Notes under the pieces: model-generated | The model's database searches: none | Seen by the model: the letters and a program-made list of their open reading frames with translations, nothing else | What the model was told of the DNA's origin: nothing | Position numbers and translations under genes: made by a program | In this document: positions 2,761 through 24,324 of the stretch, one piece after another | How the letters are laid out: each line of letters begins with the position of its first letter | Position numbering within the stretch: the first letter of the stretch is position 1 | IMG/VR virus record: IMGVR_UViG_3300045988_011289 | Coordinates: 1 to 24,475 of that record | Reading direction: 5' to 3' (one strand) | DNA from: a virus | Length of the DNA stretch: 24,475 bases

Positions 2761-3267
2761 TTATACTTCTGATGTGCCTTCTGTGAAGGTTACTGTTCCA
2801 TCTGCTACCTTTGCAACACCGACACGAATATCGCTTGCAAAGTTAATATTGAAGTTGATTTTTGAATCGACACCGCTTAATGTATCGAAAATCAATTTAG
2901 CGTCAACTTCCCACGCTTTATAGCCTTTAGTTTTGTCTCCGTCAAACATAAATACAAGTAAAGCTTTTGTATTTACTTCTTCGTTGTTTGGTACGGATTT
3001 CATCATTTGTTCGTAAATGTATTCAAAATCATCTTCGCCTTTAATCATTGTTAAATCTTGCGAAATCTGAGGTGAATAACTCTTTAATGATTCTGTTGGG
3101 TTCTTATCTGCGATAAAGTCATACGTTTCAGTTTCACTATTGAATGAAATATCTAAAGTTGTAGACTTTTTAATTCGCTTGTAACCTTCTCCCATTTGTA
3201 AGAACAATCCAATCATATACTTCTTGACTGTTTGTCCTGTAGTTACTTCAGTTCCTTGAGTTGCTAT
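2761..3267 (-). CDS. Major tail (tube) protein, ATA-start model (168 aa)
   Basis: This extends track ORF 2761-3216. The frame is open up to the TAA at 3271-3273. ATA at 3265-3267 lies 8 nt after AAAGGAG (3276-3282) and overlaps the upstream TAA as TAATA. The extension reads (M)ATQGTEVTTGQTVKKY-MIGLF. The ATG at 3216 has no SD. The position between the head-tail joining genes and the chaperones supports the call. Confidence 0.8.
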   Translation of the reverse strand: MATQGTEVTTGQTVKKYMIGLFLQMGEGYKRIKKSTTLDISFNSETETYDFIADKNPTESLKSYSPQISQDLTMIKGEDDFEYIYEQMMKSVPNNEEVNTKALLVFMFDGDKTKGYKAWEVDAKLIFDTLSGVDSKINFNINFASDIRVGVAKVADGTVTFTEGTSEV

Positions 3268-3686
3268 TAATTAAGCTCCTTTCTGTATTTGACTTGAATA
3301 GTTAACGCATATACTGCTTGACTATCCTCATTTGTGTATAGATATAAACCACTTGAAACGGAAACATCCTCACAATATCTGTTTCCGTCTAGTTGTGGCA
3401 ATTCTCCGCTTAAATTCTTTTCATCAATCCAATTTTCTAATTCTTCTAGAAAAACATTGTTATCTTGCCTTTCTGATTCAATTTGTGTATTCCTACGAGC
3501 TAGAAACGTGTAGTATTCAGTACGCATTTGAGAACCATCAATGTATGTATTTACAATTGCGTTAGGTTCTTTATACAACGCATAAGAGATAGCTTGTTGC
3601 GCTAAAACATCCGTTTCAATACGTTCATCTATCTGTATATTTCCGTAGCCATATAGCCATTGAATCAACGCTTTTGATACTGTCAT
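3267..3686 (-). CDS. Tail completion / tail terminator-slot protein
   Basis: Track ORF of 139 aa with AGGAGG upstream of the ATG. It sits immediately upstream of the tail tube gene. The function is assigned by position. Confidence 0.7.
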   Translation of the reverse strand: MTVSKALIQWLYGYGNIQIDERIETDVLAQQAISYALYKEPNAIVNTYIDGSQMRTEYYTFLARRNTQIESERQDNNVFLEELENWIDEKNLSGELPQLDGNRYCEDVSVSSGLYLYTNEDSQAVYALTIQVKYRKELN

Positions 3687-4039
3687 TCACTACCTCCTAT
3701 CATTTTTTGCGCTTTCTTTAAGATTGTCTCTGCTCCACCATTTCGCATAGATTTTTTAAACCAATGGTCTGATTTACCGCCAACGAAATGAGCATTCTCT
3801 TTGTTGTAATACCACCGTCTAGCATAAGGTGCACTTGGTCCACCTTGCTTTACTAATCCACTACCGATTTGTGTTAATCGTGTAGCCGAGTTTATCAATG
3901 CTCCTGTGTCTCTAGGCGTATAAGTGGTCATAAGCCTAATAACTTCAGAGTCAATCATTTGTTGCACTCGTCCACGTTCTTCAAGTCCTCTTGATTGTTT
4001 AATTTGGGGAATTGATTCAACATCAAGTTTGACTTTCAT
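3683..4039 (-). CDS. HK97 gp10-like head-tail joining protein
   Basis: This uses the frame of track ORF 3683-4063. I start at ATG 4039, with GGGAGG upstream, 2 nt after the previous stop. The motif ...TPRDTGALINS...APYARRWYY... is typical of the gp10 family from memory. Confidence 0.75.
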   Translation of the reverse strand: MKVKLDVESIPQIKQSRGLEERGRVQQMIDSEVIRLMTTYTPRDTGALINSATRLTQIGSGLVKQGGPSAPYARRWYYNKENAHFVGGKSDHWFKKSMRNGGAETILKKAQKMIGGSE

Positions 4040-4041
4040 TC

Positions 4042-4461
4042 CTATTGACCGACAACCTCCCAATGCTTCAACATATCAACATTCGTACAATCTGTTACGC
4101 TTTGAATTGTTGTCCATTTGTGCTTTTTCTTCGCTTCATTGATTGCCTTGATGTTAGATAAATCTTCTTCGACTTCTCCAAAGAATACGAAATCAGTTTT
4201 ATCTGTATTTAATGTGAAGTGCTTTTGCTTTTCATCATTTGAAAGCTTTGCATATGCGTAAGGTTCAACATATCCCTCACGATATAGAATGGTAATATTT
4301 GTGGATGTGGCTATGCTCAGAATATTACCGTTTGCAGTTCTAACAGTTGATTGTCTCCACATACATTTATCAAGTATAGAAGCTTGAAACCTATCTTCTC
4401 TTGTTAACGTGTCATAGTAGTGATTTACAAGTGTGATTGAATCTTCAAAAAATCCTATCAT
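4042..4461 (-). CDS. Head closure / head-tail joining protein
   Basis: This uses the frame of track ORF 4042-4506. I start at ATG 4461, which lies in an ATGA overlap with the upstream stop. The function is assigned by position. It contains one copy of the VEPYAYAKLSNDE repeat. Confidence 0.7.
   Translation of the reverse strand: MIGFFEDSITLVNHYYDTLTREDRFQASILDKCMWRQSTVRTANGNILSIATSTNITILYREGYVEPYAYAKLSNDEKQKHFTLNTDKTDFVFFGEVEEDLSNIKAINEAKKKHKWTTIQSVTDCTNVDMLKHWEVVGQ
4235..4269. repeat. 35-nt direct repeat, copy A (32/35 identical to 4887-4921)
   Basis: tcatttgaaagctttgcatatgcgtaaggttcaac here versus tcatttgaaagtttcacatatgcgtaaggttcaac in copy B. Both copies are read in the same minus frame as VEPYAY(A/V)KLSNDE. 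Confidence 0.85.
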
Positions 4462-4825: not shown

Positions 4826-4966
4826 CTATTTTTTCTTTTTATCTTGAGGTTTAGCTTCCTCTTTTTCTTCTGTGGGTTCTTCTTCGTCATTTGAAAGTTT
4901 CACATATGCGTAAGGTTCAACCTTTTTATCGATAGAAGGATAACCCCATCCGATTTCCACTGCCAT
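4826..4966 (-). CDS. Small charged ORF (46 aa) following the capsid gene
   Basis: It is not in the track because it is under 60 aa. ATG 4964-4966 overlaps the capsid TAA as TAATG. The product is MAVEIGWGYPSIDKKVEPYAYVKLSNDEEEPTEEKEEAKPQDKKKK. It fills the whole gap and carries repeat copy B. Confidence 0.45.
   Translation of the reverse strand: MAVEIGWGYPSIDKKVEPYAYVKLSNDEEEPTEEKEEAKPQDKKKK
4887..4921. repeat. 35-nt direct repeat, copy B
   Basis: See copy A at 4235-4269. Confidence 0.85.
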
Positions 4967-5835
4967 TACTTCGCACTAGCAGATAAGTAAATACCTGCTA
5001 CCTTATTTTCGTATACATCTACGATTCCATATTTACGATATTTCAATACATCTGAATCTGATTCGATGTTATTTTTTGCAGGAATCACATTTGAAACAGT
5101 GTGTTTATCCCATTTCATTACGGCAGGTTTGTGAACAATTAAGAAGTTGATTGCGTGTCCATCCTCTGCCTTTTCGTATCCGCCCTCTAACTCTGTATCT
5201 TTTCCACTCAACAATTTAATTTTTGTATAGAATCGTGTTGAAGGTACAGGAACAATTTTTGCAAATCCTTGTAAAGCTTCACGTGATTTGTATGTATCTA
5301 ATGCTTTAACGCTATTTAATAATGTTGGTGTTGAATATAAGATACGTTGTTCGCTAGGAACTTCATCCTCATCCATTTTAGTGATAGCCGTTAATAATGC
5401 ACTCAAGAACTCTTCTGCACCTGTATAATCTTCTGAAACCGTTGTGATTCCTGTTGTGCCGGCAATCTTAGCGAATGTGTAAGCGTCTGCTTCCGGTGCA
5501 ACCTTTGTACGCATTAATTCCGCTCCTGCCATGCCGAATGCAATATTCATTGATTCTGCGTTATCTTGTGTATCAACTGAGATTTTAGTTCCTCTATCAT
5601 AGTCGAATGTAGCAGTTTTCCATTCTAACTTAACTGAGTTACCTGTATAACCACTGTTTCTATCGTAGTTTCCTAAACCTTTAACAGAAATTTGTGGGTA
5701 GATGATTTCTTTTGCGTTTGCTCCTGCTCGTACCATTGTAGCGCTTGCGTTTAAATCACCTGTGACTGAAGCTAACTTATATACCTCATCCAAATTTGAG
5801 ACATACGTTTTAGCTAATGCAATTTCATTTGGTAT
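4966..5835 (-). CDS. Major capsid protein, ATA-start model (289 aa)
   Basis: This extends track ORF 4966-5793, which starts at TTG. The frame is open up to the TAA at 5839-5841. ATA at 5833-5835 lies 9 nt after GGAGG (5845-5849). The extension reads (M)PNEIALAKTYVSN-LDEVYKLASVTG, which looks like a complete capsid N-terminus. The gene follows the scaffold gene. Confidence 0.85.
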   Translation of the reverse strand: MPNEIALAKTYVSNLDEVYKLASVTGDLNASATMVRAGANAKEIIYPQISVKGLGNYDRNSGYTGNSVKLEWKTATFDYDRGTKISVDTQDNAESMNIAFGMAGAELMRTKVAPEADAYTFAKIAGTTGITTVSEDYTGAEEFLSALLTAITKMDEDEVPSEQRILYSTPTLLNSVKALDTYKSREALQGFAKIVPVPSTRFYTKIKLLSGKDTELEGGYEKAEDGHAINFLIVHKPAVMKWDKHTVSNVIPAKNNIESDSDVLKYRKYGIVDVYENKVAGIYLSASAK

Positions 5836-9365: not shown

Positions 9366-9974
9366 CTAACCCCACATTGTGTTTAAATCATTTGTAGTAA
9401 TCGCAGTTAATTCTGAACTCTTAACATACGCCGATAAATCAATGTCTGTATTACCAATCTTTTCATATGTCTTTGTTTCTGCTAACCAAATATACTCATC
9501 ATAAATATCTTGCGTTCCGTGTGAATGTGCTACCAAATAAATCACACCATTCGAACCTGTAGCAGGTAAGCTCGTTACCTTTTCATATCTAATAGATGTA
9601 ATATTACCTACTGCCGAATTAATCAACGATTGTACTTGTGATTGCGTTTGATACCCTTTAGCCGTGATAATTGACTCAACGCTCGTCGCCGACTGATATC
9701 CACTGTCATTTGTTAATTGTGATGTCTTTGTTGGCACTGTAACATCTACGGCTTTTGAGCTTGGCTCAACTTTTGTACCGTTAACCTTTACAGACTCAAT
9801 CACATTCGCTTGAGCACCGCTTGCGATACCACTTAACTTTTGCTTTTCTGCGCTTGTGTAGTCATTTGTTGATAAGCCTTTACCACTTACAACATTAACT
9901 TTCCCACCTAATTCAGATTTAATCTTACTGATTAAGAGCGTCAATCCACTCTTATCTAAATATTCAATAGCTAT
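9366..9974 (-). CDS. Fibre protein 2, ATA-start model (202 aa)
   Basis: This extends track ORF 9366-9944, which starts at TTG. The frame is open up to the TAG at 9993-9995. ATA at 9972-9974 lies 6 nt after AGGAGGG (9981-9987). The extension gives (M)AIEYLDKSGLTLLISKIK. The YLDK.GL....KIK pattern is a common fibre N-terminus from memory. A GLSTNDYTSAEKQKLSGI motif is also present. Confidence 0.75.
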   Translation of the reverse strand: MAIEYLDKSGLTLLISKIKSELGGKVNVVSGKGLSTNDYTSAEKQKLSGIASGAQANVIESVKVNGTKVEPSSKAVDVTVPTKTSQLTNDSGYQSATSVESIITAKGYQTQSQVQSLINSAVGNITSIRYEKVTSLPATGSNGVIYLVAHSHGTQDIYDEYIWLAETKTYEKIGNTDIDLSAYVKSSELTAITTNDLNTMWG

Positions 9975-10315: not shown

Positions 10316-10611
10316 GTAATCACTTCCTTATTCAATACTCTATATACTTTTGTTGTTTTGATAGGAGAAGCAATAGCGACTCCTCCTTTTGTAATCATTC
10401 TTAATTGAATGTTGCAAGTTCCCTCTTTGAAATTGAGCGTTTCTTCTTGACTTAACAACACTGAAATAACATTCCCTTCAATGTCTAAATCACTTGATTC
10501 TTTTTTTAAGATATATCCGTTTTGTTCAAATACCACATAGATATTCTGCATTTCATTTAAATCAATATCATTTATTGTTATTTGAATTGTTGGCGTAGTT
10601 CCTTGTCTCAT
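10312..10611 (-). CDS. Fibre-module protein, beta-rich (99 aa)
   Basis: This uses the frame of track ORF 10312-10632. I start at ATG 10611, in an ATGA overlap with the upstream stop and preceded by AAGGTGA. Confidence 0.7.
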   Translation of the reverse strand: MRQGTTPTIQITINDIDLNEMQNIYVVFEQNGYILKKESSDLDIEGNVISVLLSQEETLNFKEGTCNIQLRMITKGGVAIASPIKTTKVYRVLNKEVIT

Positions 10612-11417
10612 GATTTCACCTTGTAAGTCCAATCTTTACCTACTTCACCTTCATCAACTTCATACGCCCAATCTGCTAGAATCTCATGACCATTCTCATC
10701 TACTAATGTTCCATCTTCTGTTAATAGAATCGTAGTGAAATGATTCTCCATAATCATCTTTTCAATATTGGAAATTCTGTTCGATAGCTTTCCTGCCGTA
10801 TTTGCGTCTAACGTATCTTTTACAGTTTCAAACCAATCATTGAACTCTGTTCTATTTGCATTCATTTCAGATTCATTCTGAGCCTTAATTTCTTTGAATA
10901 GCTCCGTTACTTGAGTGAATAAATCCAACGATTGTACACTCTTAATAGCGCTTGTAACTGCTCCACAACGTGTTGAATCTAATCTTGTATCAGTAATATC
11001 TGAGCCTTTAACTTCGTTCGAATTGCCTGTTACTGTTACCGTAGCTAATACTAAATCGTAAATAGAATCACTTCTTGTGATTCCATCATTGATATCACTT
11101 GCTACTAAGGTAATGTTTCTGTATGCGTCATTATCATTCAATCTAAGAATAATATTGTAGCTTTTAGTAGCGCTATTCTTTTCTAATGTGATGGTTTCGT
11201 CATCCCTTTGCCAATAGAATGCTCCGTTAATATTTGCTCGTCCTGCTTTAACTGTTAAGGTTAAGCCTTGAGCTTTCTCAACTCTTAAATGGTCTGAACT
11301 AGAATCATCTATGAATACGCCATTTGTAAAGTAGCTTGAGAATAATCTTCTGAAAGCGTCATATAGTACTAATCTATCGCCATTTCTTGAGACGAATGGA
11401 AAATATGTAGTTGCTAT
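10608..11417 (-). CDS. XkdV-like fibre/structural protein 1, ATA-start model (269 aa)
   Basis: This extends track ORF 10608-11141 (TTG start) by 92 codons. The frame is open up to the TGA at 11424-11426. ATA at 11415-11417 overlaps the portal TAG as ATAG. The extension reads (M)ATTYFPFVSRNGDRLVLYDAFRRLFSSYFTNGVF...KAGRANINGAFYW...SYNIILRLNDND. It matches the conserved N-terminal domain of XkdV-type fibre proteins from memory. Confidence 0.8.
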   Translation of the reverse strand: MATTYFPFVSRNGDRLVLYDAFRRLFSSYFTNGVFIDDSSSDHLRVEKAQGLTLTVKAGRANINGAFYWQRDDETITLEKNSATKSYNIILRLNDNDAYRNITLVASDINDGITRSDSIYDLVLATVTVTGNSNEVKGSDITDTRLDSTRCGAVTSAIKSVQSLDLFTQVTELFKEIKAQNESEMNANRTEFNDWFETVKDTLDANTAGKLSNRISNIEKMIMENHFTTILLTEDGTLVDENGHEILADWAYEVDEGEVGKDWTYKVKS

Positions 11418-12817
11418 TCTTCGTCATCCCCCTCTCCATCATCTTGAATTTCTTCATTTAATAACTCCGTTGCTTCTTCTTCAGTGAATCCGTATTGTTT
11501 CATGAAGTACATAATCTTTAATCTTGGAATGTCAAATGTTAATGCGTCATTTCTTAACGCTTGTGTGGTACTTTGTTTATCCTCGATATATGTATCATCA
11601 TAATCAATAGCAATGTCTAATGAATTGATATTAAGCTTTCTGCCTTGTGTTAATTCATAGAAGTATGCTATTGCTTGAATAATATCTTGAATATATGCAG
11701 TAGATTCTTTACGTTGTGAATTTACTTCTTTCATTGCGTCTTGATTCTCACCAATATATTCTGTAGCCGTCACAATTCTTCCACTTTCAAAGGTGTATTT
11801 TTTTGTACCGAATCCAAACATCATTGATAAGATACTTAATGCAGTTTCTAACGATTGGACAACTTCTGCCGTTCTAACTGTTGGATTGTATTCTTGCCAT
11901 AAAGCTTTTTCTTCCGGTAACTTATCTCTACCTAACTGAACGAAAATCTTTTTCATTTGTGGATTCATCTTAATCTTTCCATTCTCGTCTTTCTGCATTA
12001 ATGCTTCATTCACAAGAACGATTTTATCTGACTTCAACAAATCACGATTCCACATTGTCATTGTTAAATCAATTGTTTTTAGTGGAGCAATTGCACTCCA
12101 AATCTTCGGCAAGCCGTACCCTTGCATTTGTAAGTTGTTCACCTTTGCATTTCTCATAATTGCAAACGGCTTAACCACATCTAATTGAACAATCTGAGCA
12201 CGGTCTTTTATTTCTTCGCCTGTATCTTTGAAGTAATGTGTTTCTGCAATGTACCTTTCGTCTTGTCCTTTTAAGAACATGACCATAACATATACTTTTT
12301 TTAGTTTCTCATAATTTACACCAACGAAAGCTACCTCAACAATTTCATCATTTATAACAGTTAATGGAAGGATATTCATTGAATCACAATAGTTGATTCT
12401 GATTTCTCCTCCACTGAATGTACCATCTTCATAAATCTCGGCATTAGATACCGTAACATAAGCTCCTACTGTACCATTTGCAGACATTTGTTCAACTTGT
12501 TTCCTGTACATTACATCAAACCTATTCTTGTTTAGAATATCTGTAATGATGTCATTTGTAGTACTGTCCTCTGTAGCATTTATATCTATGATTTCAATCA
12601 AGTTTGCATCATCTTCACACAAACGTTTCGCAAAGTCTGTTTTATCAAGTGTGTATTCCTCATTGTTCAAGGTGTATGCCGTATGAAATTCTGTTTCGGT
12701 ATTCGTGTACCACTTGTTACACAATTCAATAATCTCAATTGCATTTGTATCTACATAGTACCCTCTATCGTTTAGGTAATTCTGAAACCACGGATTACGT
12801 GTGTTAGATGTTTCTAT
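11414..12817 (-). CDS. Portal protein, ATA-start model (467 aa)
   Basis: This extends track ORF 11414-12724, which starts at TTG. ATA at 12815-12817 lies 6 nt after AAGGAGG (12824-12830), with an in-frame TAA two codons upstream. The extension reads (M)ETSNTRNPWFQNYLNDRGYYVDTNAIEIIEL-CNKWY. W...L..RGY is the usual N-terminus of this portal family from memory. The gene follows the large terminase. Confidence 0.85.
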   Translation of the reverse strand: METSNTRNPWFQNYLNDRGYYVDTNAIEIIELCNKWYTNTETEFHTAYTLNNEEYTLDKTDFAKRLCEDDANLIEIIDINATEDSTTNDIITDILNKNRFDVMYRKQVEQMSANGTVGAYVTVSNAEIYEDGTFSGGEIRINYCDSMNILPLTVINDEIVEVAFVGVNYEKLKKVYVMVMFLKGQDERYIAETHYFKDTGEEIKDRAQIVQLDVVKPFAIMRNAKVNNLQMQGYGLPKIWSAIAPLKTIDLTMTMWNRDLLKSDKIVLVNEALMQKDENGKIKMNPQMKKIFVQLGRDKLPEEKALWQEYNPTVRTAEVVQSLETALSILSMMFGFGTKKYTFESGRIVTATEYIGENQDAMKEVNSQRKESTAYIQDIIQAIAYFYELTQGRKLNINSLDIAIDYDDTYIEDKQSTTQALRNDALTFDIPRLKIMYFMKQYGFTEEEATELLNEEIQDDGEGDDEE

Positions 12818-15340: not shown

Positions 15341-15367
15341 TAAAAGAACCGAGACAAACGCTCGGTA
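15341..15367 (-). terminator. Intrinsic terminator downstream of the tRNA
   Basis: The minus strand reads ACCGAG-CGTTTGT-CTCGGT followed by TCTTTTAA. It ends about 12 nt before the SD of the ParB-like gene. Confidence 0.65.
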
Positions 15368-15446: not shown

Positions 15447-15522
15447 TGGTTGCAGGAGAAGGATTTGCACCATTCGACCTCTAGCTAATAAGACTAGTGA
15501 GCTACTACTGCTCTATCCTGCT
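15447..15522 (-). tRNA. tRNA-like gene, anticodon UAU (reads AUA), initiator-tRNA-like body, encoded CCA
   Basis: Hand-folded 76-nt cloverleaf: AGCAGGA-UA-GAGC-AGUAGUA-GCUC-A-CUAGU-CUUAUUA-GCUAG-AGGUC-GAAUGG-UGCAAAU-CCUUC-UCCUGCA-A-CCA. The acceptor stem has 6 bp plus an A1xA72 mismatch. The D stem has 4 bp and the anticodon stem 5 bp including one G.U pair. The T stem has 5 bp with one bulged U. U8, A14, G15:C48, A21, U33, G53:C61 and U54/A58 are present. Atypical positions are G55, U19 and U37. Confidence 0.65.
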
Positions 15523-15528
15523 AAAACA

Positions 15529-15537
15529 ATTATTACA
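15529..15537 (-). promoter_or_regulatory. Possible extended -10 element (TGTAATAAT) for the tRNA
   Basis: The minus strand reads TG-T-AATAAT and ends 6 nt before tRNA nucleotide 1. No -35 element was recognised. This is weak, pattern-only evidence. Confidence 0.25.
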
Positions 15538-15539
15538 TG

Positions 15540-15562
15540 AAAAAATGCTCACATTGTGAGCA
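15540..15562 (-). terminator. Intrinsic terminator overlapping the end of the late-activator gene; contains palindrome copy 2
   Basis: The minus strand reads TGCTCAC-AAT-GTGAGCA followed by TTTTTT. The stop codon TGA (15549-15551) lies within the 3' arm of the stem. The core GCTCACA-N-TGTGAGC also occurs at 6513-6527. Confidence 0.7.
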
Positions 15563-15875
15563 CTTTCTTTAAGTTCTTATTTATTTTTCTTGGGATTTCT
15601 TCTCTTGCATAACCTACAATATTAGATGTCTTTTCTGCACTGAATCCTTTTATATATCTATACTCAATCATTGTTCGAGTTGTATCATCAAGTTGGCTTA
15701 ATTTTTCTTTTACATAGTTCATTCTTCTTGCATAATCTGCATGAGCCAAGAATAGCTCGGCTTTTAAAGGATAAATTGCTTCATCCCTTTGTAGCTCTGC
15801 TATCTTTTGCTCATAATATGTGTACGATTGGCATTCACACAAGAAGTGTCTCTTAATATCTTCATATGTACTCAT
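15549..15875 (-). CDS. Putative late-gene transcriptional activator (ArpU/RinA/sigma region 4-like)
   Basis: Track ORF of 108 aa in an ATGA overlap with the upstream ORF. It is the last early gene before the packaging module. The C-terminal IEYRYIKGFSAEKTSNIVGYAREEIPRKINKNLKKV looks like an HTH. Confidence 0.5.
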   Translation of the reverse strand: MSTYEDIKRHFLCECQSYTYYEQKIAELQRDEAIYPLKAELFLAHADYARRMNYVKEKLSQLDDTTRTMIEYRYIKGFSAEKTSNIVGYAREEIPRKINKNLKKVLTM

Positions 15876-16066
15876 GAACTGTATACCTTATACAATCTAT
15901 CCTTTAATTCGCCAACTTCACTTCTTAATTTCTTAATTTCTTTAGCTTGAGTATGAATTGTTGCGTTTCTTTCTTTTAAAGTCTGCTCCAATTCAATATT
16001 CTTCCTTCCTGGTCTGTTGTTTTTAGAAATTAACTCTTTAATCCTTTCTTCATAATTCATTTCTAT
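15872..16066 (-). CDS. Small coiled-coil protein; start ATA 16066 or ATG 16060
   Basis: This uses the frame of track ORF 15872-16075. The track's GTG start abuts AGGAGG (16075-16080) with zero spacing. ATA at 16064-16066 is 8 nt from the SD. ATG at 16058-16060 is 14 nt from it. Confidence 0.7.
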   Translation of the reverse strand: MEMNYEERIKELISKNNRPGRKNIELEQTLKERNATIHTQAKEIKKLRSEVGELKDRLYKVYSS

Positions 16067-17765: not shown

Positions 17766-18065
17766 TTAACTCATTAATTTATTTTTGTAACGATTATCCA
17801 ATTCTTCCATAACATGCTTTCCACCATATAGTTTCGATGCGTAAACAATGTAGTCTAATTCATCTAGCATACTGTTCATCAAGTCTTTATTGGTACAGAC
17901 AAATTTAATATTCTTTTGCAAAGATAAATAAGTTTGCTCAATTTGTTTATCGATTTCATAAGCACTGCTTTTATCTAATCTGATAAAAGTATTTATTTTT
18001 ATAGTATCTTCTCTTTGCTTTTTTCTTTCCTTTTCTAAGTTTTTTTTCAATTCTTTATCTGTCAT
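17766..18065 (-). CDS. Hypothetical protein
   Basis: Track ORF of 99 aa. Confidence 0.7.
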   Translation of the reverse strand: MTDKELKKNLEKERKKQREDTIKINTFIRLDKSSAYEIDKQIEQTYLSLQKNIKFVCTNKDLMNSMLDELDYIVYASKLYGGKHVMEELDNRYKNKLMS

Positions 18066-18270
18066 TTTTATTCTTTATCCTTTCATCAACTTTTTCTAAG
18101 CAATATTCCGTACAATTATCGTATTTTAAACATTTGCCAAGCTTATACGCTACACATTTATTTTGTAAGCATTTATGGAGTACTGGTCTTGTGAAATTTC
18201 CTTGACCATATACAATTGGCACAACTTCTTCTTTTGAAGTTAAATCAGGACAAAATTTAATCATCTTCAT
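18055..18270 (-). CDS. Cys-rich hypothetical protein
   Basis: Track ORF of 71 aa that overlaps both neighbours. Confidence 0.65.
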   Translation of the reverse strand: MKMIKFCPDLTSKEEVVPIVYGQGNFTRPVLHKCLQNKCVAYKLGKCLKYDNCTEYCLEKVDERIKNKNDR

Positions 18271-20255: not shown

Positions 20256-21014
20256 CTATGCTCTTAATATTTCCCTTCTCACTCGTTCCATTTCTTTCTG
20301 TACATCTGCATACGATTGATTGCTTTCTTGTGCATAGAATTTAGAATCAAGTTTTACAGGATTGACAGGATTGTTCTTATTTCTTTTCATCCATTCATCA
20401 TGTACCCACTTTTGAATCACTAGTGAATGGTTCTTGTATTTCTTTCCGGATGTTTCAATATATTCATCTAATATCTTTATATGCTCATCTAATGAATCAC
20501 CATATAAATCTAATAGGTGTGTGTGTTCTTTATCTGTAAGTAACACGTGTGAATATTCACCGTATTTGTGTTTACTTACTTTTAATTTATTATTAATTTT
20601 AGTATTAATAACTTTATTATTATCTTTAACATTTTTGTTAATAGGAGTATTTACGATTTCGTTTATACCCTCTAAATCATTTTGTATATACCTATTAACA
20701 TTTTTGTTAATAGGGGTATTTACAATATATAAATGCCTTTCGATAATTTCTTTTGTTCCTTCTTTATACAATGTTTCTACGGCAATATATCCTTTTTTGT
20801 ATAGAGTGCTAATCCATCTACTTACTGTAATTTTAGAAACTTTATATAAATCTGCGAAATATTGATTTGTTGCCCAACAATATCCTTTTTCATTACACAA
20901 TGATGTAATTTCTCCATACAATAGTTTTGCGTTTGGTGGCAATTCTTCATCATATCGAACTTCTGCAGGTATTATTGCGTAATACGATTTCTTTAGTTCT
21001 GCTATTCTAATCAC
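20256..21014 (-). CDS. HTH replication initiator / replisome-organizer-like protein; start uncertain (GTG 21014 or ATA 21005)
   Basis: Track ORF of 252 aa. The N-terminal YYAIIPAEVRYDEELPPNAKLLYGEITSLCNEKGYCWATNQYFADLYKVSKITVSRWISTLYKKGYI is a familiar phage HTH replication-protein N-terminus. GTG 21014 lies inside the GGGGG run. ATA at 21003-21005 is 8 nt after GGGGG and 1 nt after the RusA TAG. Confidence 0.8.
   Translation of the reverse strand: MIRIAELKKSYYAIIPAEVRYDEELPPNAKLLYGEITSLCNEKGYCWATNQYFADLYKVSKITVSRWISTLYKKGYIAVETLYKEGTKEIIERHLYIVNTPINKNVNRYIQNDLEGINEIVNTPINKNVKDNNKVINTKINNKLKVSKHKYGEYSHVLLTDKEHTHLLDLYGDSLDEHIKILDEYIETSGKKYKNHSLVIQKWVHDEWMKRNKNNPVNPVKLDSKFYAQESNQSYADVQKEMERVRREILRA
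20626..20723. repeat. Two 29-nt direct repeats (28/29 identical, 69-bp period) inside the initiator gene; candidate iterons/origin
   Basis: ttaacatttttgttaataggagtatttac at 20626-20654 and ttaacatttttgttaataggggtatttac at 20695-20723. Both encode VNTPINKNV. A very AT-rich tract at about 20581-20625 is adjacent. Confidence 0.6.
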
Positions 21015-21384
21015 CCCCTAGAATTTCTACCTCTATTCTTGGATTCTCTTTATCTGTAAATACTGAATGATTCACTTGATTAATGTATTTTCTTGAATCA
21101 TCCTCGAGTATTCCTGTTCTAACTAATGAATCTTGAATGAATTTAGTTGCAAATGTTATGTTGTCAATATCTTTTCTGTCATTCGGTTCATACCATGTGA
21201 TATTTAACTGAACAGGATATTTCTTGATTTCATAAATTTCACCGAAATTCACTGCCTGTAAGATGTAAGCCATAATTAAGCGTTCATTCTTTTTCTTCAT
21301 CTCTGCGCCTTTATACCTATTAGCTCTACAAGCGTTGATATATTCATTTAGTCCGTCTAATCGTCCTTTAATTGTAAATTTTAT
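21007..21384 (-). CDS. rusA: RusA-family Holliday junction resolvase, ATA-start model (125 aa)
   Basis: This extends track ORF 21007-21300 by 28 codons. The frame is open up to the TAG at 21409-21411. ATA at 21382-21384 lies 6 nt after AAGGTGG (21391-21397). The extension gives (M)KFTIKGRLDGLNEYINACRANRYKGAE-MKKK. The RKDIDNITFATKFIQDSLVRTGILEDD motif matches RusA from memory. Confidence 0.75.
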   Translation of the reverse strand: MKFTIKGRLDGLNEYINACRANRYKGAEMKKKNERLIMAYILQAVNFGEIYEIKKYPVQLNITWYEPNDRKDIDNITFATKFIQDSLVRTGILEDDSRKYINQVNHSVFTDKENPRIEVEILGGD

Positions 21385-24007: not shown

Positions 24008-24176
24008 ATTCGTTCACCTCCATCCTAGATTCACATGTATTGATTTTATTCACTTCTTGCAAATCTCTAACATTCAATTGATTTGCAATTTCTTTTGCTT
24101 CTGCACTGTCATGTGCTTCAACCTCGAATGTGACATTTGCAGTCACATCGAAGGTTACGAAATATGTTCTAGTCAT
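23997..24176 (-). CDS. Hypothetical protein (59 aa)
   Basis: This uses the frame of track ORF 23997-24200. I start at ATG 24176, after AAGAGGTGA. Confidence 0.65.
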   Translation of the reverse strand: MTRTYFVTFDVTANVTFEVEAHDSAEAKEIANQLNVRDLQEVNKINTCESRMEVNEYDN

Positions 24177-24324
24177 GTTTCTCACCTCTTTTCGATTCAT
24201 CTAAGATACAAGCGATATATCCTTGATGAAATTCTGAAATCTCATAGCCTTTCTTTTTAAGCTCGCTTAAGGCTTCAAAAATTCTCTTGTCTAGTATTGT
24301 TTCACCTCCATGACCTGTCATCAT
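24169..24324 (-). CDS. Small ORF; 51 aa from ATG 24324 (no SD) or 42 aa from ATA 24297 (SD GGAGGTGA, 7-nt spacer)
   Basis: It is not in the track. The product is MMTGHGGET-ILDKRIFEALSELKKKGYEISEFHQGYIACILDESKRGEKHD. Its stop overlaps the next ATG. Confidence 0.4.
   Translation of the reverse strand: MMTGHGGETILDKRIFEALSELKKKGYEISEFHQGYIACILDESKRGEKHD

Follow-up and report, generated by a model that had tools for sequence, protein, structure and literature searches.

Introduction

To our knowledge, every natural initiator tRNA described so far carries the anticodon CAU, and initiators specific for a codon other than AUG exist only as laboratory constructs. A mismatch between positions 1 and 72 (1x72) acts as an anti-determinant for EF-Tu and as a determinant for the formyltransferase. 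Elongator tRNA-Ile(UAU) occurs in Mycoplasma mobile and in tilS suppressors of Bacillus subtilis, and tRNAs that read ANN codons typically carry a purine or t6A at position 37, which in E. coli is a determinant for isoleucyl-tRNA synthetase (IleRS). For stop codons, Borges et al. reportedly described in 2022 that phages recode them with suppressor tRNAs of their own, often in structural or lysis genes. Here we describe a tRNA gene in the IMG/VR virus record IMGVR_UViG_3300045988_011289, of which positions 1 to 24,475 were analysed (24,475 nucleotides (nt), hereafter the window). The gene lies on the minus strand at 15447..15522 and, judged from its sequence and that of its relatives, very probably encodes an initiator tRNA of the phage in which the anticodon has changed from CAU to UAU and which starts translation at AUA.

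Engineered initiator tRNAs with mutated anticodons start translation at the complementary codons, and CCU/AGG is the best of twelve pairs compared in E. coli (bioRxiv 10.64898/2026.04.16.719103); in that article the words 'natural' and 'phage' do not occur. The base 3' of the anticodon also matters: A37U and A37G mutants of E. coli tRNA-fMet favour the complementary base at mRNA position -1, forming a quadruplet pairing (PMC10018350). Initiation factor 3 (IF3) checks codon-anticodon pairing and not codon identity, and a full complement is accepted (PMC10158994). In mitochondria, tRNA-Met with f5C34 reads both AUA and AUG (PMC2655697). Full-text literature searches returned engineered non-AUG initiators only and no natural or phage example; their coverage is incomplete, and a prior description is possible.

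The preliminary description of this DNA had proposed an initiator-like tRNA that reads AUA. This proposal is supported by genes that have ATA as their only possible start, by the joint occurrence of tRNA and ATA starts in relatives and in independent lineages, and by a sister group in which CCU tRNAs accompany AGG starts. The tRNA is of initiator type and conserved, the ATA-only genes and their co-occurrence with it are observed directly, and the CCU/AGG system runs parallel to it.

Results

An initiator-type tRNA gene with the anticodon UAU

Read from 15522 to 15447 on the minus strand, the letters form the 76-nt cloverleaf that had been drawn by hand in the preliminary description. The acceptor stem AGCAGGA/UCCUGCA is followed by UA, a D stem GAGC/GCUC around the loop AGUAGUA, a single A, an anticodon stem CUAGU/GCUAG around the loop CUUAUUA, the variable loop AGGUC, a T stem GAA(U)GG/CCUUC with one bulged base around the loop UGCAAAU, and A73. 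The CCA is encoded (15449-15447). The anticodon UAU at positions 34-36 is read at 15490-15488, as had been reported, and U37 is at 15487. The Rfam tRNA model RF00005 confirms the tRNA call, matching 15450-15522(-) over model positions 1-71 of 71 with 48.8 bits (gathering score 29, E = 8e-8). This is the sole Rfam match across the window, and 1:72 is the sole non-standard pair flagged by the model. The minimum-energy fold is likewise the cloverleaf with the bulged T stem. The assignment draws on RF00005, on a covariance model that we built from the tRNA family (R1) and on covariation. The deviations that had been listed are also real: a 7-nt D loop without GG, G55, U37 and a one-base bulge in the T stem, to which A1xA72 adds a further oddity, and one of three anticodon-stem G:C pairs.

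All initiator elements that had been named in the tRNA are there, namely the 1x72 mismatch, G2:C71, C3:G70, A73, A11:U24, the AGGUC variable loop and the CCA end. G2:C71, C3:G70 and A73 occur in the window tRNA and in every UAU variant. Position 1x72 is A1xA72 in the window and C1xA72 or G1xA72 in other UAU lineages; since base 1 is A, C or G and never U, 1x72 is always mismatched in the UAU types. Over the family alignment 1x72 is unpaired in 19 of 23 members, and acceptor pairs 2-7 are paired in 100%. A11:U24, within the GAGC/GCUC D stem, is found in all UAU and CAU members and in part of the CCU members; elongators from the same search have C11:G24 or U11:A24.

The anticodon itself is UAU and not the CAU of bacterial initiators. 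Neither does the tRNA look like an elongator tRNA-Ile(UAU): instead of a paired 1:72 it has A1xA72, instead of a purine at position 37 it has U37, which is invariant in all UAU variants, and the nearest GenBank phage matches of its body are tRNA-Met or tRNA-fMet, never Ile or Arg. The less derived UAU variants (types 3 and 5) share 77-79% identity with tRNA-fMet, for which E. coli, whose sequence was verified in 5,426 genomes, and B. subtilis served as references. Identity to Ile and Met elongators is 57-64%, and to the Ile tRNAs of E. coli 57-66%. R1 separates the family from other tRNAs: members score at least 58.9 bits and the window tRNA 84.9, and ordinary tRNAs of the same loci reach at most 46.8. 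One prophage (L144) carries a genuine elongator tRNA-Ile(UAU) with a paired 1:72, C11:G24 and A37, and it scores 40 bits with R1 against 85 for the window.

At least eight genes of the window can start only at ATA

ATA starts were sought in stop-to-stop open reading frames (ORFs) with a strong Shine-Dalgarno (SD) sequence, an ATA 4-11 nt 3' of it and an in-frame stop directly before the ATA. At least eight genes of the window lack a canonical start (ATG, GTG, TTG), and each has an SD sequence followed by A-ATA. All of them lie on the minus strand. The ATA-initiated N-termini are supported because PHROG and Pfam profiles align to them, and the first canonical start would remove conserved residues in each profile-supported gene.

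The portal gene (11414..12817, ATA 12817-12815) begins directly 3' of the terL stop in the context AAGGAGGT-aagaa-ATA, with A at -1; phrog_533 aligns residue 22 to profile position 27. For the following head protein (10608..11417, ATA 11417-11415), the PHROG matches begin at residues 2-8 of a translation whose residue 2 is the ATA codon. Its first canonical start costs 93 residues, and the orthologue in L078 has the same ATA start. The ATA of this gene overlaps the portal TAG stop (A-ATA-G, 11414-11418), which corresponds, with ATA, to the well-known ATGA overlap of coupled genes. The major head protein (4966..5835, ATA 5835-5833) has the context AAGGAGG-atttaatta-ATA, again with A at -1, and phrog_422 aligns its residues 3-288 to profile positions 3-294 of 297. 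Capsid homologues with 64-70% identity, 289-290 amino acids (aa) long, begin MPNNI or MANTI, and their Met1 aligns to the ATA of the window sequence IPNEI.

Two further genes of the structural module, both of unknown function, have ATA with A at -1. The tail-proximal one (2761..3267, ATA 3267-3265, 168 aa) is aligned by phrog_3099 from residue 10 and has the same start in L078. The other (9366..9974, ATA 9974-9972) is aligned by phrog_24103 over residues 4-200 to profile positions 4-195 of 197, and two of six relatives have ATG exactly at the position of the ATA. Among the early genes, the replication initiator or DnaD-like gene (20256..21005, ATA 21005-21003) has residue 6 at position 1 of phrog_19658. 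In the RusA-like resolvase gene (21007..21384, ATA 21384-21382), the Pfam profile aligns residues 24-121 to positions 21-123 of 124, the first ATG costs 28 residues and the ATA is kept in relatives. Both have A at -1, as does a small ORF of 42 aa (24169..24297, ATA 24297-24295) behind GGAGGTGA.

Three more sites are less clear. A minor head protein matched by phrog_556 (3683..4045) has a probable ATA start at 4045-4043 with an SD sequence 9 nt upstream, and one relative lacks the ATG two codons 3' of it (ATA GGT ATC). The ATA at 16066-16064 (15872..16066) has ideal spacing behind AGGAGGTG, but an ATG follows two codons 3'; the ATA at 18071-18069 (17766..18071) has a weak SD sequence and also an ATG two codons 3'. 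Both are ambiguous.

The closest capsid clusters are products of gene-caller truncation: P0001 (1,224 members) is 275 aa long, and P0002 and P0003 are 256 aa. They are short by 14-33 residues (P0001 by 14) because gene callers disallow ATA.

The UAU tRNA and ATA starts occur together

Exact-pattern scans found the tRNA in 35 IMG/VR and 28 metagenome contigs, largely from the human gut. In all 38 loci fetched via the portal protein the portal start is ATA. The tRNA lies 2.2-5.2 kb 5' of the portal gene in 31/31 loci with enough upstream DNA; the other seven loci end within 3.9 kb. L078, whose capsid is 85% identical to that of the window, has eight ATA starts, and the capsid relatives L079-L081 have ATG starts and no tRNA.

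Within the window clade the anticodon stem is CUAGU/GCUAG in the window, CUAGC/GCUAG in L029 and UCGGU/GCCGA in L034-L039, which amounts to three compensatory pair swaps; the last of these stems equals that of E. coli tRNA-fMet save for 31:39. The anticodon loop CUUAUUA is invariant across the UAU group. In the T stem (15464-15481) the bulged strand reads GAAUGG, GAACGG or GAAGAG in relatives, and five pairs are kept. The bulge is found in every member of the window clade and is absent from two other lineages, L083/L167 (C1xA72, stem UUGGU/GCCAA) and L175 (G1xA72, stem CCGGU/GCCGG). These two carry the loop CUUAUUA on a canonical cloverleaf in which the D loop has GG, the T loop is UUCGAUU and the T stem lacks a bulge; their terS (AKGKYKE), portal and capsid genes start at A-ATA. 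When 23 family members are aligned, standard pairs make up 95% of the cells; shuffles give 75.7%, none of 500 reaches the observed value, and slid controls give 38-47%. Sixteen of the 21 pairs are changed on both sides, and the covariation backs all four stems.

Some further observations concern the relatives. The additional base of the T stem varies between U, C and a shifted A/G, and position 59 in the T loop between A and U. In L078 a gene of the QueT family (queuosine precursor transporter) lies between the ParB-like gene and terS (L078:819-1238). In the ATG-type relative L081, a group I intron (RF00028, 79.5 bits; L081:9687-9910) is found in the structural module by HNH/NUMOD4 and GIY-YIG genes. 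Large phages from IMG/VR (L028 and L030-L033, up to 196 kb) carry tRNA gene arrays, with as many as 28 genes in the part retrieved. Their CAU tRNA has the D loop AGUAGUA and the T loop UGCAAGU with G55 and is 82% identical to the window tRNA; it is followed by a 96-nt call of 'tRNA-Ile(tat)'. The unusual elbow is thus not unique to the UAU clade, being common to these CAU tRNAs. A lone ATA candidate in a Blautia schinkii DSM 10518 prophage (L106:18982), gagaggtgaaaagaa-ATA, lies 19 codons ahead of any canonical start; the locus is without a family tRNA, and the candidate may be chance.

A sister group combines CCU tRNAs with AGG starts

The analysis also covered 80 prophages with a related capsid in bacterial genomes, most of them from Lachnospiraceae and other Clostridia. 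In the aligned capsid start over 86 loci (L078-L163), ATG is found in 62, and A-AGG stands behind a strong SD sequence in L089, L110 and L126. ARAGORN, and then R1, found 'tRNA-Arg(CCU)' genes 0.6-0.75 kb 5' of the capsid gene. The CCU tRNA is present in 15 bacterial loci (L087, L088, L089, L096, L100, L102, L105, L110, L114, L126, L128, L149, L153, L155, L158) and in the IMG/VR loci L237, L239, L249 and L266; among them, L088 comes from the cultured isolate Roseburia lenta NSJ-9, where it lies at about 560-581 kb of NZ_JACOPG010000001.1. ARAGORN labels the CCU tRNAs tRNA-Arg or misses them, and their nearest GenBank matches are tRNA-Met or tRNA-fMet, not Arg. Their bodies have AxA, CxA, GxA, AxG, GxG or CxU at 1x72 (UxC in L266) and A73, and the anticodon arm is often identical, UCGGU-CU-CCU-UA-GCCGA with U31.G39 and U37.

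In the CCU loci, AGG starts are found at terS (AKGKYQ), portal (ENCVKEYL), minor head, capsid (PNTIALAKNY) and tape measure (ADGSLIFDTKLD) genes. Over the terS, portal, capsid and tape-measure orthologues, the start codon goes with the anticodon: UAU with ATA and CCU with AGG. A census of non-canonical SD-proximal codons gives the same picture. The top codon is ATA in the UAU loci (122 in 626 kb) and AGG in the CCU loci (16 in 206 kb). The 72 loci without a known CCU or UAU tRNA have 14 ATA, nearly all of them in 'ATA ATG', and 7 AGG in 1,210 kb; two of these seven come from L100 and L102, which were later found to carry a CCU tRNA. Over these 72 loci the enrichment is 17-fold for ATA and 13-fold for AGG, counted over loci many of which are close relatives.

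The anticodons seen in the family are CAU, UAU and CCU only, and a search with the pattern GCTCGTCGGTCTNNNTAGCCGA for other anticodons in the same stem returned already-known loci only. In L095, L112, L115, L116, L123, L131, L163, L255 and L258, tRNAs of this type carry CAU, and their 1:72 pair is weak or lacking. In addition, the Streptococcus phage Javan59 (L272:6001-6073; MK448817.1 20081-20153), and also Javan74, has an unannotated initiator-type tRNA(CAU) with C1xA72. In Javan59 it lies directly 5' of terS, which is the genomic position of the window tRNA.

Position 37 and the base before the start codon

In the window, A stands at -1 in 8/8 strong and 3/3 weaker ATA starts, and in 13 of 30 ATG starts. 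Taking all starts served by tRNAs with U37, A is found at -1 in 37 of 43 (12/12 ATA and 25/31 AGG), compared with 56 of the 108 ATG starts of the same loci (p = 8e-5). The exceptions are mostly weak calls, or have a G that could form a G.U pair. Four CCU variants have C37 (loop CUCCUCG or GUCCUCA; L100:3885-3955, L102:1040-1110, L096:537-607, L266:6848-6918). In two of them, L100 and L102, the tape-measure gene starts with G-AGG, and phages with U37 have A-AGG at the orthologous start. L088, which has A37, shows no preference at -1 (C, A, A, T). These patterns, drawn from few independent lineages and an A-rich background, suggest that position 37 of the tRNA covaries with mRNA position -1, as would be expected for a four-base pairing.

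Genomic setting

All genes lie on the minus strand. In the direction of transcription the order is SSB, a small coiled-coil ORF, a 108-aa protein with a weak match to sigma-70 region 4, a hairpin with a T6 terminator, the tRNA and a second hairpin. These are followed by a ParB-N-domain protein, a small-terminase-like gene with a helix-turn-helix, terL, portal, the head genes and the tail genes. The hairpin 5' of the tRNA (15540..15562, minus strand; TGCTCAC-AAT-GTGAGCA at 15562-15546, T6 at 15545-15540) resembles an intrinsic terminator. The hairpin scan listed it on the plus strand; reading shows that the T run is 3' of the hairpin on the minus strand. It probably ends the sigma-70-region-4-like gene and so separates that gene from the tRNA. 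The second terminator-like hairpin (15348..15366, minus strand) is about 80 nt 3' of the tRNA, directly before the SD sequence of the ParB-like gene. A candidate extended -10 element read by hand, TGTAATAAT (15529..15537, minus strand), ends 6 nt 5' of the tRNA, and its sequence is conserved among relatives; a scan for consensus two-hexamer sigma-70 promoters found none for the tRNA on the minus strand. From this layout the tRNA looks like a small separate unit heading the packaging and morphogenesis block. An attachment site was considered as another reading of the element and rejected, as no integrase is nearby and the gene lies between a late regulator gene and packaging genes.

The phage is known from metagenomes only. 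Megablast of the region against GenBank phages gave no match, and an exact-pattern scan for the UAU anticodon arm in 185,579 species genomes gave zero matches, so that no host can be named from a prophage. Low GC, the human gut origin and a terL closest to those of Clostridioides difficile phages are pointers to the host; terL is 45-50% identical to these phages and to one human faecal phage. PHROG and Pfam scans of about 25 of the roughly 45 genes, tRNA flanks included, found no synthetase, formyltransferase or initiation-factor gene.

Discussion

The features of the locus suggest how such an initiator could work. The tRNA would be transcribed as its own small unit between the two terminator hairpins. 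Charging is most likely by an anticodon-driven synthetase, for which IleRS is our guess, with U37 and the stem pairs mismatching the determinants of E. coli IleRS. The unpaired A1xA72 beside G2:C71 and C3:G70 probably excludes EF-Tu and offers the tRNA to the formyltransferase and initiation factor 2 (IF2). In the P site of the 30S subunit, UAU would pair with AUA codons behind SD sequences and so start at least eight genes, namely those for the portal, the head and major head proteins, RusA and the replication initiator, besides the phrog_3099 gene and two more. Indirect evidence for such use is that the complementary codon stands at the start of at least eight genes, and does so only in carriers of the tRNA. 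With A at -1, U37 probably forms a fourth pair (mRNA 5'-A-AUA-3', tRNA 3'-U37 U36 A35 U34-5'), strengthening a weak duplex made of A and U only. The outcome would be a start codon private to the phage, with essential genes translatable only with the phage tRNA. As to purpose, our preferred reading is a translational lock by which essential genes depend on the phage tRNA; the main alternative would be independence from the host initiator. More broadly, we consider it likely that phages of gut Clostridia have evolved a natural orthogonal initiation, in which initiators with switched anticodons read A-AUA, A-AGG and G-AGG via positions 34-37.

Several observations weigh against an AUA-reading initiator. 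ARAGORN, which the preliminary description had named beside RF00005, does not call the tRNA in the window or in L001; the miss in the window is due to its scoring of this variant, as the sister variants are called. The window tRNA is the most degenerate variant of its family, and its single-sequence fold energy is not better than that of shuffled sequences (z = -0.96). With the fold energy unremarkable, it is the covariance model, the conservation in 35 viral and 28 metagenome contigs and the compensatory base changes that mark the element as more than chance. Three consecutive G:C pairs at 29:41, 30:40 and 31:39 are not found in the window, which has A29:U41, G30:C40 and U31.G39; types 3, 5 and 6 have G29:C41, G30:C40 and U31.G39, and G30:C40 alone is near-invariant in the family. 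U37 excludes t6A37, the stem determinants of E. coli IleRS are absent, and methionyl-tRNA synthetase should reject U34. The tRNA of L078 was not found in the 20.7 kb examined of its contig, Logan ERR10754278_32531, about 12 kb of which lie beyond. With just three or four UAU lineages, and close kinship among many of the loci, the enrichments are not phylogenetically independent. The early genes for RusA and the replication initiator are also ATA-started, and a simple late switch therefore does not fit. Finally, an AUA mRNA in an optimised context is translated well by native tRNA-fMet in vitro (PMC5499595). ATA starts alone thus demand no special tRNA, and it is the AGG starts together with the switch of anticodon that restore the argument.

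The conservative alternative already raised in the preliminary description is an ordinary elongator tRNA-Ile(UAU) that serves AUA codons in an AT-rich phage. The ATA starts would then be read, efficiently or not, by host tRNA-fMet, for which its translation of AUA mRNA in vitro speaks. ATA makes up 94 of the 470 internal Ile codons of the window, so that extra AUA decoding could help; tRNA-Ile(tat) is the label that ARAGORN gives to the tRNAs of L029 and L034, and ordinary phage genes for tRNA-Ile(UAU) do exist. However, the one in L144 shows what such a gene looks like, and with its paired 1:72, C11:G24, A37 and 40 bits against 85 it differs from the window tRNA, whose body is fMet-like and not Ile-like. 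In every UAU variant the mismatch at 1x72 sits on an otherwise perfectly paired acceptor stem, and U37 removes the purine and the t6A of ANN-reading elongators. An elongator would also leave unexplained why ATA starts are confined to carriers of the tRNA and why CCU and AGG run in parallel. We therefore regard it as very unlikely.

A phage initiator could instead mainly replace host tRNA-fMet at AUG under attack by a host defence, with the ATA starts arising as secondary drift. Through wobble at U34, UAU could in principle read AUG as well as AUA, and CAU tRNAs of initiator type occupy the corresponding genomic position in Javan59 and in related phages, among which an initiator of their own is common. 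VapC-type toxins cleave initiator tRNA in the anticodon arm (PMC5175351). Yet the CCU relatives cannot read AUG and have the same architecture with dedicated starts, and among the relatives ATA is strictly conserved gene by gene, in a subset of the genes only; replacement at AUG is, in our judgement, even less probable than an elongator. The least probable of the alternatives is a decaying relic or a tRNA-like RNA without a role in translation, for example a recombination site, an anticodon-nuclease decoy or a signal for transcript processing where the late operon begins. The silence of ARAGORN, the elbow without GG and with G55, the bulged T stem and the fold energy would suit it, and evasion of tRNA-targeting defences has been proposed for phage tRNAs whose anticodon loops are altered (PMC10264068). 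Against it stand a sequence that is nearly constant over more than 35 contigs, the compensatory changes of the anticodon stem, the bulge that moves while pairing is kept, and sister lineages with a canonical cloverleaf and the same loop. The gene has no integrase beside it, its neighbours being a regulator gene on one side and packaging genes on the other. The anticodon also matches the otherwise unexplained start codon of at least eight genes and, in the CCU group, switches together with the starts.

If the tRNA is indeed an AUA-reading initiator, essential phage genes would have a start codon that is poorly or not read by the host initiator, and their proteins would begin with a residue other than Met. 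Which amino acid comes first is one of the questions raised; another is whether the system serves gating, a guard against leaky prophage expression or freedom from the host initiator. The CCU version can be tested in the cultured isolate Roseburia lenta NSJ-9. For annotation, gene callers truncate or miss such genes, and start tables would need ATA and AGG where such a tRNA is present. Synthetic biology would gain naturally optimised orthogonal pairs of initiator and start codon, including a fourth pair between position 37 and mRNA -1.

Comparison with known systems

Bacterial tRNA-fMet shares with the window tRNA the unpaired 1x72, G2:C71, C3:G70, A73, A11:U24, the GAGC/GCUC D stem, AGGUC, G30:C40 and CCA. 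Unlike it, the window tRNA has UAU in place of CAU, U37 in place of A37, one of three G:C pairs in the anticodon stem with U.G at 31:39, and an elbow without G18G19 but with G55 and a T-stem bulge; it is also phage-encoded and matched to ATA starts. The engineered anticodon-mutant initiators of E. coli are alike in that a changed anticodon turns a complementary non-AUG codon behind an SD sequence into a start. Of the twelve engineered pairs, CCU/AGG is the most efficient (bioRxiv 10.64898/2026.04.16.719103), and it is this pair that natural prophages carry; A37U initiators prefer A at -1 (PMC10018350). They are laboratory constructs, whereas the phage system is natural, involves many essential genes and is coupled to changes at 37 and 31:39.

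Mitochondrial tRNA-Met (PMC2655697) likewise brings about AUA starts through the initiating tRNA itself. However, its gene has CAU and a modification widens decoding, whereas the window gene has UAU and its sister group CCU. Nuclease-evading phage tRNAs (PMC10264068) are also phage-encoded with unusual anticodon loops, but they keep their decoding identity and act in elongation; in the window the anticodon is changed and the starts are matched to it.

Elongator tRNA-Ile(UAU) reads AUA with the same anticodon, but in elongators 1:72 is paired, 11:24 is a pyrimidine:purine pair and position 37 holds a purine, all of which are seen in L144. In stop-codon recoding, too, a phage tRNA alters the meaning of a codon and makes a set of genes translatable only with that tRNA. 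Recoding acts on stop codons during elongation, whereas the window system would act on the start codon via an initiator-type tRNA. If our reading is correct, this tRNA would be the first natural exception to the CAU rule of initiator tRNAs and a start-codon counterpart of phage stop-codon recoding, and it would demonstrate that private reassignment by a virus is possible for the start codon as it is for stop codons.

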